Shown: one piece after another, positions 29,284-31,693 of the stretch
Layout of the letters: every line of letters begins with the position of its first letter
Numbering within the stretch: position 1 is the stretch's first letter
From: a virus
Taxonomy: Duplodnaviria; Heunggongvirae; Uroviricota; Caudoviricetes
Virus record (IMG/VR): IMGVR_UViG_2850808358_000005
Length of the DNA: 64,000 nucleotides
Reading direction: 5' to 3' (one strand)
The notes under the pieces: generated by a model
Seen by the model: the letters and a program-made list of their open reading frames with translations, nothing else
Told to the model about the DNA's origin: nothing
Database searches by the model: none
Program-made: the position numbers and the translations under genes

Positions 29284-29692
29284 AATCTATGGCGCTTTTT
29301 CAACGAGCAATAAACACACAGGCCTATCTAAAAGCAGGAATTATGGGGTTTGCTGGCGACGGCAAAACCTACACAGCAAGCGAACTGGCTATTGGTCTGG
29401 TAATGCTTATGCGGCAACGGGGAATTGAAGCTGGTAACCGCCCGGTAATGTTTCTGGACACAGAAACAGGCTCTGACTGGGTTAAACCCCGCTTTGATGC
29501 GGAAAATATCGAATTATTTACGGCAAAAACCCGCTCGTTTGTTGATCTGCTTGAAGCCATTAATGAAGCGGAAAGCAGCGGTTCCGTAATGATCATCGAC
29601 TCCATCAGTCACTTCTGGACCGGATTATGCGACGAGTATGCCAGACGCCGAAACCGTAAACGAGGACTGGAATTTTCAGACTGGGCGTGGCT

Positions 29693-30957
29693 TGAGGTGT
29701 ACTGGCAATAGCGGACACTACCATTTGTTCTTTTTTTAAGCAGCCATCTGATGATATTTTTCCCTGAAGGCTGCCGGGGAGATATTCCCCAGACGAGAGT
29801 GACGACGCTGACGATTGTAGAAAATCTCAATGTATTCCCGTATTACTGAGATGGCTTCATCCCGGTTATTAAAACGATAGTGGCTCAGGCTCTCATTTTT
29901 CAGCGTTCCCCAGAAGCTTTCCATCGGAGCGTTGTCGTAACAGTTACCTTTACGCGACATTGATGTTTTCAGACCAAACTGCTCCTGTATGACCCGGTAA
30001 TCGTATGCGCAGTACTGTGAACCTCGATCAGAGTGGTGGATTAGCCCGGCAGGTGGGCGCTGGCTCCTGAGCGCCATAAACAGGGCTTTACCTGTCAGCT
30101 CTTTTGTCATGCGCTCTCCCATGGCGTAGCCGACAATTTCGCACGTATAAACATCTTTGATGCCAGCGAGGTACAACCATCCCTCCTGTGTGGCAACATA
30201 CGTCAGGTCCGCCACCCAGACCTGATTTGGTGCTGTAGGAGCGAACGTCTGGTTCAGCAGATTTGGCGCAACTGGCAGATTGTGGTTCGGGTTCGTAGTC
30301 GCTCTGAACTTGCGTTTCTGCTTACAGCGTAGCCTTAGCTCCTTACGAAGACGTGCCAGTCGGTCACGACCAACGATGATGCCATTCTCTGCCAGCTCCG
30401 TCTGGAGCCGCCGGGTTCCATATGTTTCGCGAGTGCGGATATGTGCCACCTTAATCTCCAGTTTTAGCCGCTCATCACTTTGTTTTCTGTCTGAGGGTTC
30501 ATGCTGTACCCAGTTGTAATAACCGCTCCTGGATACACCAAATACCTGACACATAGCTTCAATGGGAAATTGTTGTCGCCATTGTTCGATTAACGCGTAT
30601 TTTTCAGCGACTCCTGTGCAAAATACGCTGTTGCTTTTTTTTAATATATCTCGCTCAAGGCGAGCTTCATTTAACGCCTTACGCAGTTGCAGAATTTCAG
30701 ATTCCAGTTCAGCCACCGTGCGGGAACCAGGAGTACCGAGCCCTTTTCTGGCGGCGGTAACCCATTGTCCTAAAGTGCCTTCAGGAAGGGATAATCGGGA
30801 AGCGCCTTCACTGATCGAAAGTTGATTTTCAAGAACCGTTCTGACAGCTTCGGCTTTGAACTCTTTAGAGTAACGTTGGGTTTTTCTGCTCATTATTAGC
30901 TCCTTCTGATGCCATTCTATTTCAGGAAGGAGTGTCCGTTAAACTCAGGCTACCTCA
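29693..30957 (-). mobile_element. IS600-like IS3-family insertion sequence, copy 1 (1265 bp)
   Basis: Ends TGAGGTGTACTGG... and ...GGCTACCTCA; 3-bp target duplication GCT on both sides. Confidence 0.85.
29736..30893 (-). CDS. IS600 transposase, orfA-orfB fused in frame (OrfAB-type)
   Basis: Single 385-aa ORF; the slippery run is 8 nt (30635..30642) versus 7 in the other three copies, giving ILKK-SNSVFC..., the canonical -1 frameshift product. Confidence 0.75.
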   Translation of the reverse strand: MSRKTQRYSKEFKAEAVRTVLENQLSISEGASRLSLPEGTLGQWVTAARKGLGTPGSRTVAELESEILQLRKALNEARLERDILKKSNSVFCTGVAEKYALIEQWRQQFPIEAMCQVFGVSRSGYYNWVQHEPSDRKQSDERLKLEIKVAHIRTRETYGTRRLQTELAENGIIVGRDRLARLRKELRLRCKQKRKFRATTNPNHNLPVAPNLLNQTFAPTAPNQVWVADLTYVATQEGWLYLAGIKDVYTCEIVGYAMGERMTKELTGKALFMALRSQRPPAGLIHHSDRGSQYCAYDYRVIQEQFGLKTSMSRKGNCYDNAPMESFWGTLKNESLSHYRFNNRDEAISVIREYIEIFYNRQRRHSRLGNISPAAFREKYHQMAA

Positions 30958-31693
30958 GCTCAAACAGGAGTGGCGACGCTTTACCGATCGATTTGTTAAC
31001 AGTCAGGCGCACATTATTATGTGCGGGCGTGCAGGATATGAGTATGACTTTTTCGAAGGTGATGATGGCAAACGCCAGTTGGCAAAAACCGGTATAAAAA
31101 TGAAAGCAGAAACAGAAACCGGTTATGAACCCTCCATCCTGATCCAGATGGAGAAGCAAATGAACATAGAAACCGGTCAGGTGTGGCGCACCGCCAGAAT
31201 ACTAAAAGATCGCTCCACCCGTATTGATGGACAGGTATTTTCAAACCCAACATTTAAAAACTTTCTTCCTCATATCGAGTTTCTTAACCTGGGAGGTGAA
31301 CACCTCGGCATCGATACCTCACGGGATAACAGTGAATTATTTGCCAACGACGGTACACCGACATGGCTAAAAGAAAAGCGTGCAAAAGAAATCGCACTTG
31401 ATGAAATTATCGAGTTGCTCAACAAGCACCATGGGGGCACCAGTAACGACGCCAAACGCGCAAAAGCTGATTTGCTGGAAAAAACATTCACCTCCCGCTC
31501 ATGGGAAAGAATCAAAGGTATGGACTGGCCGACAATCAAAGCTGGTCGTAATGCACTATGGATTGAACTGGAAGGCGTTGAATATGCATTCCCGGATCCA
31601 CAAACACAAAACGAAACGCAACAAGCAGGATACGATGAGAATATTCCGGTGTAAAACCAAGTGCATTTTTGGAAAATATTAATGGAGGTGTTC

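Follow-up and report, generated by a model that had tools for sequence, protein, structure and literature searches.

Two independent IS600 insertion events in one phage ATPase gene of tandem Shigella boydii prophages

The same phage ATPase gene is broken by IS600 in both of two tandem prophages in the window (the whole 64,000-nucleotide stretch of DNA analysed), and the two insertions are real and independent transposition events. Ordinary accumulation of insertion sequences (ISs) in decaying prophages probably explains both of them, and there is no evidence for selected inactivation of the ATPase. One of the two targets, a CAC triplet at gene nucleotides (nt) 745–747, is a real site-level IS600 hotspot that has been hit in both orientations in different strains.

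The window DNA matches the S. boydii CP026877 chromosome, and self-BLAST of the window together with annotation reveals two lambdoid (Rac-like) prophages in tandem beside yebY. An att-side sequence is common to both, beyond which prophage 1 is followed by the ipaH end of prophage 2 and prophage 2 by yebY, and these distinct continuations indicate a tandem arrangement at one attachment site. In prophage 1 the ATPase gene follows recE′ and gam in the early-left recombination module, with recE′ being C-terminally truncated (it is annotated 'RecE family ... missing C-terminus'), and the downstream module is 97.9% identical in the two prophages. A search for exact copies of the 283-aa integrase fragment of prophage 2 gave no match. 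Shigella chromosomes carry 229–348 IS insertions, with IS600 among the five expanded ISs (Hawkey et al. 2020, PMC7373316), and both window prophages are in decay through the IS expansion that is characteristic of Shigella. The neighbouring features are located as follows.

27141–29283, plus strand: upstream neighbours in prophage 1, recE′ (27141–29009) and gam (28984–29283), identified by PF06630 and PF06064
31661–33313, plus strand: downstream neighbours in prophage 1, the DUF1187 gene, the excisionase gene (31975–32271) and the tyrosine integrase gene (32237–33313), from profile search and annotation
61615–63266, plus strand: downstream module in prophage 2 (DUF1187, xis and a frameshifted int), from self-BLAST
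33314–33475, corresponding to 63267–63428, no strand assigned: att-side sequence common to both prophages, from self-BLAST

There are four near-identical elements of 1264–1265 bp in the window by self-BLAST, and over 1264 bp these are 99.8–99.9% identical to features on plasmids that bear the annotation 'IS3-like element IS600 family transposase'.

29693–30957 (1265 bp), minus strand: IS600 copy 1, with its transposase antisense to the ATPase gene
36212–37475, plus strand: IS600 copy 2, in the opposite orientation to copies 1, 3 and 4
38787–40050, minus strand: IS600 copy 3, from self-BLAST
59990–61254 (1265 bp), minus strand: IS600 copy 4, in the same orientation as copy 1

The element begins with TGAGGTGTACTGGC... 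and finishes with ...CTCAGGCTACCTCA, its terminal inverted repeats having the form 5′-TG ... CA-3′, and the orfA and orfB products (100 aa and 272 aa) contain HTH_Tnp_1 and rve domains. The slippery run for the −1 frameshift is A7G in copies 2–4 and A8 in copy 1, and the additional A gives copy 1 a single in-frame 385-aa OrfAB ORF (29736–30893). Simple IS600 insertions are flanked by 3-bp target duplications, as illustrated by GCT at copy 1, TGG in L007 and CTA in L019 (L numbers denote related genomes and loci used for comparison).

The intact ATPase gene is a 1098-nt ORF lying between gam and DUF1187-xis-int, and codes for a 365-aa protein. Residues 14–187 match Pfam family PF13479 (AAA_24) with 52.5 bits against a cut-off of 27, and the Walker A motif GFAGDGKT (G20 to T27) is invariant across 44 homologues. 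The best PHROG match is to phrog_1366, which has no function assigned there, and the match to the Sak4 PHROG (phrog_124) is weak (1e-08). An AlphaFold2 model has a mean pLDDT of 84, and its best Foldseek matches in the PDB are KaiC, RadA, RAD51 paralogues, UvsX and RecA, all with a probability of 1.00; the TM-scores are only 0.3–0.55, because the ATPase has an extra C-terminal domain. We read the protein as a conserved Sak4-like ATPase with a RecA fold, belonging to the phage recombination module, and the location of its gene next to gam and the truncated recE suggests a putative role in recombination or single-strand annealing. Searches of PADLOC, NCBIfam and PDB sequences with the ATPase returned no hits, and thus no known family of defence proteins or toxins. 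Exact copies of the intact protein are encoded on 755 contigs, and 10 of 5426 complete E. coli genomes contain the 5′ part of the gene, which is intact in the two examined (L001 and L002). Within the 'phages' collection there is no close relative carrying the ATPase gene, the matches there being restricted to the DUF1187/xis side. The S. flexneri allele has an L195R substitution at an otherwise invariant residue.

Copy 1 splits the ATPase gene of prophage 1 at nt 402–404. A sequence-only reading had placed it at 29693 inside a P-loop ATPase gene with a duplication, and we find this duplication to be the 3-bp sequence GCT; the positions given in that reading are all correct.

29289–29692, plus strand: 5′ part of the prophage-1 ATPase gene (nt 1–404), identified by PF13479 and phrog_1366
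29690–29692, no strand assigned: left copy of the GCT target-site duplication, from sequence
30958–30960, no strand assigned: right copy of the GCT target-site duplication, from sequence
30961–31654, plus strand: 3′ part of the prophage-1 ATPase gene (nt 405–1098), from reconstruction and comparison with the intact gene

The interrupted ORF runs into the IS and stops at 29711 (140 aa), and the same junction product is known in S. boydii as WP_235869979.1. Excision in silico of the IS and one GCT restores the 1098-nt ORF, whose nucleotide sequence is 100% identical to that of intact genes annotated 'AAA family ATPase' in E. coli FDAARGOS_943 and CFSAN029787. The 3-bp GCT duplication shows that prophage 1 acquired IS600 by a simple copy-out/paste-in insertion at nt 402–404.

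The arrangement in prophage 2 is more complex. The right end of copy 4 (...CTACCTCA, ending at 61254) is followed by CACCTCGGCATCG, which corresponds to the window from 31301 onwards and to gene nt 745; copy 4 thus abuts the homologous gene about 340 bp further downstream with the 5′ part missing, just as the earlier reading described (61255 corresponding to 31301). The left flank (...CTTATAGGTG) is not ATPase sequence and includes a remnant of an IS4-family transposase spanning 59485–59820.

59485–59989, minus strand: left flank of copy 4, with the C-terminal remnant of an IS4-family transposase (NF033591, profile positions 235–339 of 340)
61255–61608, plus strand: 3′ remnant of the prophage-2 ATPase gene (nt 745–1098), from self-BLAST

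The flanking triplets differ (GTG on the left and CAC on the right), so there is no target duplication, and copy 4 is a rearranged IS600 that is still a member of the family. The only callable ORF in the ATPase remnant is of 79 aa (61369–61608). Lost between the IS4-family remnant and the CAC are the ATPase 5′ part, gam, recE′, and the immunity and replication genes. A simple insertion at this site would give a left junction in which ...GGTGAACAC is joined to TGAGGTGTAC; in prophage 2, the IS600 right end was joined at the CAC triplet (nt 745–747), and we infer that the missing DNA was removed either by IS600 insertion and then recombination with a second IS600 upstream, or by a single IS600-mediated adjacent deletion.

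That these represent two independent hits in one gene, as the sequence-only reading proposed, is borne out by the 340-bp offset and by the separate occurrence of the junctions in other genomes. First, junctions 340 bp apart are not interconvertible by gene conversion or homologous recombination. Second, the nt 745 junction is also present, with an identical left flank, in two other complete genomes (L011 and L015), and the nt 402–404 junction product is recorded on five contigs only, none of which are from those two assemblies. It is highly improbable that both arrangements derive from a single ancestral IS600 insertion, with prophage 2 having obtained its form from prophage 1 (or the reverse) by gene conversion and a 340-bp adjacent deletion. 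The 97.9% identity of the tandem prophages over the module makes conversion mechanistically possible, and copies 1 and 4 have one IS-internal SNP in common (alignment column 820), but the route would need no fewer than three steps (conversion, an adjacent deletion on the right whose endpoint falls precisely at nt 745, and the acquisition of a different left flank), it does not fit with the distribution of the two junctions among different assemblies, and copies 1 and 4 each have private differences. Moreover, the nt 745–747 triplet has been hit independently in the opposite orientation in L042, showing that it is a primary target. The IS600 copies differ from each other at 0–4 positions, which is uninformative as to parentage, and the private SNPs of copy 4 are absent from L011 and L015, such that shared descent of the nt 745 allele is not traceable by SNPs. 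A clean IS600 insertion at nt 808–810, with a TGG duplication, is present in the yebY-adjacent prophage of four genomes (L007, L013, L016 and L029), the first of which is a sister S. boydii genome; this is yet another IS600 site.

The CAC triplet lies within a palindrome that is uninterrupted in the prophage-1 copy of the gene.

31293–31306, no strand assigned: 14-bp palindrome GAGGTGAACACCTC, with arms GAGGTG and CACCTC around a central AA, from sequence

The CAC at 31301–31303 is the triplet struck in prophage 2. In L042 it is the left flank (...GAACAC) that touches the right-end tip of IS600, and in the window, L011 and L015 that tip touches the right flank CACCTCGG; homologous recombination between ISs never alters which end a flank touches, and these are therefore two separate events at one triplet. 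The chance that any two of six IS600 events would fall in one triplet within 1098 bp is about 15/1098, or 0.014. The prophage-2 site is a sequence-level IS600 target, in that the arms of the palindrome mimic the IS600 terminal repeat: on each strand, 8 of 10 positions agree with the left-end tip TGAGGTGTAC. An 8/10 match to the end is expected about once per gene by chance. When 35 unique IS600 flanks were scanned for end mimics, matches of at least 8/10 were found at three sites compared to about 0.9 expected, which is suggestive but not significant. In L009 an IS600 directly abuts a 12-nt fragment of another IS600 end. For IS911, another member of the IS3 family, the target sequences look like its own inverted repeats, and by analogy the prophage-2 site is consistent with such targeting. 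This 'targeted insertion' of IS911 is named in the titles of Loot et al. 2002 (EMBO J) and Rousseau et al. 2008 (J Bacteriol), cited in PMC2909936 and PMC7986276; we know of no IS600 targeting experiment. The 14-bp palindrome in this conserved gene is a candidate natural bidirectional hotspot to which IS600 may be steered in the manner of IS911.

Survey of homologous prophages, as had been suggested alongside the sequence-only reading, covered 57 related loci. The first comparative set was collected using the 79-aa 3′ ORF as query, and three neutral anchors (Gam, DUF1187 and a 98-aa gene upstream) then served for re-sampling the loci; the samples are small and partly redundant by descent, the longest contigs being read and similar neighbourhoods collapsed. 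There are 13 distinct IS junctions in the ATPase gene among Shigella and enteroinvasive E. coli (EIEC), although three of these were obtained with queries biased toward the ATPase gene, and they involve five IS types (IS600, IS629-like, IS2-like, IS911-like and IS1) scattered between nt 40 and nt 1105 without a shared motif. Insertions in the first set seemed to be tightly clustered at nt 745–810, which was rejected as an ascertainment artefact of the query; the 79-aa ORF is called only when the gene is broken just upstream, and the apparent cluster at nt 745–828 is largely a product of this. Decay of the ATPase gene by other means is also seen: the gene is frameshifted in L008 and L051, has lost 44 bp in L013 and L029, and is deleted altogether in L027. 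ISs are also present in recE′ (5 events), the upstream hypothetical gene, gam, DUF1187, xis and int, and about half of the loci have a recE′ broken by a frameshift or an IS. Of the 30 anchor-sampled loci (some redundant), 17 retain the intact 365-aa ORF, including all four loci of the type to which S. sonnei 53G belongs.

The anchor-based sample contains eight events in the ATPase gene (1.1 kb) and five in recE′ (1.9 kb), a difference of approximately 2–3-fold per kb, and there may be a real but modest IS enrichment in the ATPase gene. Its significance depends on the denominator and on how events are counted, with p ranging from 0.019 to 0.11 in tests selected once the data had been seen: relative to the remainder of the module, the ATPase gene, with a length share of 0.276, has 7 of 12 events (p = 0.025; for 8 of 14, p = 0.019); against recE′ alone, 8 of 13 compared to 0.361 (p = 0.055; for 7 of 12, p = 0.098); and against the rough IS density in these prophages, eight observed compared to 4.8 expected (p = 0.11).

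Could this excess reflect selection, with a RecA-like ATPase being harmful to the lysogen and knock-outs by any IS being repeatedly favoured in Shigella? The harm might arise from recombination among the hundreds of IS copies, for example, or from toxicity upon leaky expression, and the 13 independent junctions of five types within 1.1 kb, the nominal excess over recE′, the frameshifts and deletions in other strains and the S. flexneri L195R substitution are all in its favour. Nonetheless, we regard selection as unlikely. First, 17 of 30 sampled loci have an intact ORF, among them EIEC loci and loci of S. sonnei type that are IS-ridden elsewhere, and exact copies of the intact protein occur on 755 contigs. 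Second, neighbouring genes decay at similar overall rates, as the disruption of recE′ in about half of the loci illustrates. Third, the statistics are borderline and were picked with the data in view. Fourth, a repressed prophage does not normally express its early-left operon. Finally, the ATPase has no match in PADLOC or to a toxin family. A more elaborate form, in which a prophage recombinase would destabilise an IS-laden chromosome, and IS-laden lineages of Shigella would repeatedly lose the Sak4-type ATPase, is similarly improbable, as is a lesser companion reading in which IS600 is steered to mimics of its ends.

A second possibility, and one we consider doubtful, is that a regional property (composition, DNA structure, or location at the end of the early-left operon) attracts transposases to the whole gene, selection aside. 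The same junction counts would favour it, as would the orientation of the comparable flank-keeping IS600 insertions (nt 40–42, 402–404, 745 in the window, and 808–810), in all four of which the transposase is antisense. However, four of four corresponds to p = 0.125, and the orientation is reversed in two further IS600 events (one in L017 and L026, the other in L042); the junctions are scattered without a common motif, the nt 745–828 cluster is largely a consequence of the query, and the enrichment over general IS density is not significant (p = 0.11). The proposal of either a hotspot or selection for inactivating the gene is thus sustained only for the single CAC site; at the level of the gene neither part is shown, with neighbouring genes also hit, an excess of borderline significance, and about half of the loci intact.

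We therefore favour ordinary IS accumulation. The ATPase gene is dispensable in a defective prophage, and dispensable Shigella prophage DNA carries about 0.3 IS per kb, such that a 1.1-kb gene present in two copies would easily be struck twice. The presence of five IS types counts against this reading, in that shared sequence preference alone would not predict it. If ordinary accumulation is correct, then the window provides one more example of IS expansion eroding Shigella prophages; selection would be of interest only if the intact ATPase has a phenotype. The catalogue of 13 junctions in a conserved 1.1-kb gene may provide lineage markers for S. boydii, S. flexneri and EIEC prophages, and the CAC within the palindrome is a concrete natural candidate for targeting by IS600 of mimics of its own ends, as reported for IS911.

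Comparison with known systems reveals both similarities and departures. The likeness to IS911 targeted insertion lies in the use of nt 745–747 in both orientations inside an end-mimic palindrome and is one of resemblance only; IS600 is joined inside the pseudo-repeat rather than at its tip, and the other IS600 sites in the ATPase gene have no such mimicry. The ATPase resembles the Sak4-like/AAA_24 core-only RecA-family recombinases in its Walker A motif, AAA_24 match, predicted RecA/KaiC/RadA-like fold and gam-adjacent gene, but differs from them in being 365 aa long with a helical C-terminal extension of about 130 aa. The prophages are similar to the Rac-type defective lambdoid prophages of E. 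coli and Shigella in having ydaE, recE, YdaS/YdaT and kilR-type genes, a trkG-like fragment, and an integrase and excisionase terminating the early-left operon; they depart from that type in that recE is truncated, gam and the AAA_24 ATPase are in place of recT, ipaH is at the prophage-2 end, and two prophages are in tandem at yebY. The window IS600 copies are like those of the IS3 family in length, ends, orfA and orfB, and 3-bp duplication, with no essential difference from known IS600 apart from the extra A that fuses orfA and orfB in copy 1. As in the Shigella IS expansion generally, where many copies disrupt dispensable genes and mediate deletions and inversions (PMC7373316), the window presents the same situation.

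Comparison of the window with itself reveals four IS600 copies of 1264–1265 bp, which differ from one another at 0–4 positions and are 99.8–99.9% identical to features annotated as 'IS3-like element IS600 family transposase' in S. boydii and E. coli plasmids.

IS600 copies identified by self-comparison of the window
29693–30957, copy 1
36212–37475, copy 2, inverted
38787–40050, copy 3
59990–61254, copy 4

Copies 1 and 4 are associated with the same 1098-nt phage ATPase gene (gene positions, 'nt', follow its numbering), in prophages 1 and 2 respectively. Copy 1 has GCT on either side (29690–29692 and 30958–30960), a 3-bp duplication, and its removal restores the 1098-nt ORF, which two E. 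coli genomes carry uninterrupted and 100% identical in nucleotides as an annotated 'AAA family ATPase' gene (WP_001173292.1). Copy 4 stops on its right at 61254, where the sequence continues with CACCTCGGCATCG; the same bases begin at window 31301, gene nt 745. Copy 4 lacks a target duplication, its left-hand triplet being GTG and its right-hand one CAC, and its left flank is foreign, the remnant of an IS4-family transposase; it has therefore undergone rearrangement. This could have happened by insertion at CAC followed by recombination with an upstream IS600, or a single IS600-mediated adjacent deletion may have joined the right end to CAC; under either route the CAC site at nt 745 was picked by the IS600 transposase.

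The two hits are independent. The sequence-only reading had placed IS600 at different positions in the same gene of both prophages, as two separate events; every one of its coordinates was correct on re-check, and the junctions lie 340 bp apart, a shift that gene conversion cannot produce. Two other complete genomes, L011 and L015, share the nt 745 junction and have the identical left flank from the IS4 remnant, and the product of the nt 402–404 junction is recorded on five contigs only, none from those two assemblies. A third, clean IS600 insertion with both flanks and a TGG duplication lies at nt 808–810 in the yebY-adjacent prophage of L007, a sister S. boydii chromosome, and likewise in L013, L016 and L029.

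The copies differ at the slippery orfA/orfB site, which is A8 in copy 1 and A7 in copies 2–4. The copy 1 transposase therefore reads as a single in-frame 385-aa OrfAB ORF (29736–30893, minus strand) with no separate OrfA or OrfB. Since the balance of OrfA and OrfAB is said to control target choice in IS911, copy 1 might, by analogy, behave differently from the others. Copies 2 and 3, a perfect inverted pair (span 36212–40050), enclose 1311 bp of tail-fibre-like DNA (37476–38786), and the arrangement might amount to an invertible or composite segment.

The window is identical to part of CP026877.1 (GCA_002950035.1); the junction protein of that contig carries a Shigella boydii annotation, and the adjacent accession CP026876 is a plasmid of S. 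boydii. Prophage homology shows up in the window as two repeated blocks, 14078–18445 with 51877–57212, and 31300–33475 with 61254–63428 (97.9% identity), the second including the integrase genes.

Integrase genes of the two prophages
32237–33313, prophage 1 int, at the end of prophage 1; intact, 358 aa
62191–63266, prophage 2 int, at the end of prophage 2 next to yebY; frameshifted into 87-aa and 283-aa ORFs

Gene content indicates that prophage 1 is lambdoid and Rac-like. The 162 bp downstream of each int (33314–33475 and 63267–63428) are common to both prophages, after which the sequences diverge, prophage 1 running directly into the ipaH-bearing far end of prophage 2, and prophage 2 into yebY; the two are therefore a tandem lysogeny at a single attachment site. 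In E. coli FDAARGOS_943, intact relatives are found at this yebY site. A hairpin (GACCGAATAC...GTATTCGGTC) overlapped by the att core is intact on the yebY side only. Directly after the prophage 1 att region lies an ipaH-family type III effector gene (34052–35767; NF046045, 563 bits), and the same ipaH end is seen in L010 and L047. Prophage 2 also carries an IS4 element with a disrupted transposase (47156–48501), an IS110-family transposase fragment (49556–50275) and a trkG-like membrane-protein fragment (50129–51292), and with at least 6 IS in 30 kb it is far denser in IS elements than prophage 1 (1 in 33 kb).

The ATPase protein matches Pfam AAA_24 (52.5 bits, cut-off 27); its best PHROG match is phrog_1366 (function unknown), and a Sak4-like annealing-protein PHROG is matched weakly. 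Conservation is high: identity over 44 proteobacterial homologues is 60–88%, the Walker A motif being invariant. The AlphaFold2 model (pLDDT 84) has a RecA-type core followed by a helical C-terminal extension, with Foldseek matches to KaiC, RadA, RAD51 paralogues, UvsX and RecA. The gene is flanked by gam and by DUF1187-xis-int, and the upstream recE is without its nuclease domain. Fold and context together suggest that it is a recombinase of the phage recombination module; a search against defence and toxin families gave no match. Compared with its E. coli FDAARGOS_943 counterpart, the truncated recE (recE′, 27141–29009) is missing 63 bp; the junction (28321–28329) shows a 9-bp overlap, and the product has 622 rather than 646 aa; in all relatives the C-terminal nuclease domain is already missing and recT is absent.

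The sequence-only reading had proposed surveying homologous prophages for IS insertions in the ATPase gene, and the window together with surveyed loci from other genomes (L-numbers) yields 13 junctions there; neighbouring genes of the module have been struck too. A junction cluster at nt 745–810 in a first comparative set was rejected as an ascertainment artefact, because the 79-aa 3′ ORF used as query is called only when the gene is broken just upstream. Given this bias, loci were sampled again from three anchors that are called whether or not the ATPase gene is broken (Gam, DUF1187 and a 98-aa gene upstream of recE′), and the breakpoints of all surveyed loci were mapped on an IS-free reference. 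Elements other than IS600 are presumptively named, from Pfam content and terminal sequences.

IS junctions in the ATPase gene
nt 40–42, IS600, duplication CTA, L019
nt ~55–57, IS600, opposite orientation, L017 and L026
nt 88–90, IS629-like, L023, L034 and L032
nt 303, IS2-like, L047
nt 402–404, IS600, window
nt 745–747, IS600, window, L011 and L015
nt 745–747, IS600, opposite orientation, L042
nt 772, IS911-like, L009, L012, L014 and L010
nt 808–810, IS600, L007, L013, L016 and L029
nt ~828, IS1, L022
nt ~1002, IS629-like, L031
nt 1018–1026, IS1, L052
nt 1096–1105, IS1, L032

IS elements in neighbouring genes
recE′, two IS600, S. sonnei-type loci
recE′, IS4, L024
recE′, IS5-like, L036 and L052
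recE′, IS600, L009
hypothetical gene upstream, IS1, L020
gam, IS600 in L042 and IS911 in L009
DUF1187, IS1, L057
xis, IS600, L015
int, IS600, S. sonnei-type loci
int, IS630-type element, L013, L016 and L029

At nt 772 (5899|5900 in the coordinates of these loci), L009, L012 and L014 have a full IS911-like element joined by its right-end tip, and L010 has 61 bp left over from the left end of that element, a pattern suggestive of a deletion directed at the end of the resident IS; the 61-bp remnant in L047 has a different flank. The recE′ segment of S. sonnei-type loci lies between two inverted IS600 copies and is oriented in L021 opposite to L025, L030 and L035, an IS600-mediated inversion polymorphism.

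The further suggestion of a gene-level hotspot, or of selection for inactivating the gene, is unsupported (p = 0.019–0.11; intact ORF in 17 of 30 loci). The neutral anchors recover eight events in the ATPase gene (1.1 kb), five in recE′ (1.9 kb) and one in the hypothetical gene. The excess gives p = 0.019–0.054 against the rest of the module and 0.055–0.098 against recE′ alone, and a rough density of ~35 IS in ~120 kb of prophage target predicts 4.8 events for the 8 observed (p = 0.11); these tests were picked post hoc, on small, pre-filtered samples partly redundant by descent, and a 2–3-fold excess is unproven. Three findings argue against strong selection for inactivation. First, the intact 365-aa protein is encoded in those 17 of 30 anchor-sampled loci, including all four of the type to which S. 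sonnei 53G (HE616528) belongs. Second, the exact intact protein occurs on 755 contigs. Third, frameshifts and small deletions damage the gene and its neighbours alike. The window alone gives a chance of ~2–7%, by our own rough estimate, that a single pair of paralogous genes takes two of the four IS600 copies. Since Shigella chromosomes carry 229–348 IS insertions each, with IS600 among five expanded elements (PMC7373316), it is unremarkable for a dispensable 1.1-kb gene present in two copies to be hit twice.

At the level of the site, nt 745–747 is a real IS600 hotspot. A simple insertion at CAC would yield a truncated product of 249 aa (ending ...GGEH), and such a protein, annotated S. flexneri (P0121), does occur on 13 short contigs, most of which end exactly at CAC. 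One of these contigs, L042 (seen in three samples), continues past CAC into the IS600 right-end tip (TGAGGTAGCCTGAG...); in the window this tip also touches CAC, but on the opposite flank. When IS copies recombine by homology, each flank stays joined to the IS end it had, and these are therefore two separate events at one triplet, in opposite orientations. For six IS600 events in 1098 bp, the probability that any two share a triplet is ~0.014. The triplet lies inside the palindrome GAGGTG-AA-CACCTC (31293–31306), in which 8 of 10 positions agree with the IS600 left-end tip (TGAGGTGTAC) on either strand.

The observations are best explained if IS elements accumulated neutrally in tandem prophages that are decaying within a genome saturated with IS and, in addition, IS600 had a sequence-specific target at nt 745–747. 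All components (IS600, an AAA_24 ATPase, Rac-like prophages, Shigella IS expansion) are of known kinds; the only mildly new point is a naturally occurring target site that IS600 has entered in both orientations. IS911, an IS3-family relative of IS600, is known for 'targeted insertion', a term in the titles of papers cited by PMC2909936 and PMC7986276. Within recE′ of L009 (3112–3135; GCA_024732285.1), a 12-nt IS600 right-end fragment (TGAGGTAGCCTG) abuts the left end of a full IS600, which looks like insertion at the end of another IS600 and points in the same direction as targeting of end-like sequences. At the start of the L042 contig (1–27; ERR316260) an IS600 left-end tip is joined within gam, and the gam flank (TGAGGCAGAC) agrees with the right-end tip of IS600 in 8 of 10 positions. 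Across the full set of 35 unique IS600 flanks, there is no significant enrichment for end mimicry. Targets of IS911 resemble the element's own ends, and the IS600 target at nt 745–747 likewise resembles an IS600 end.
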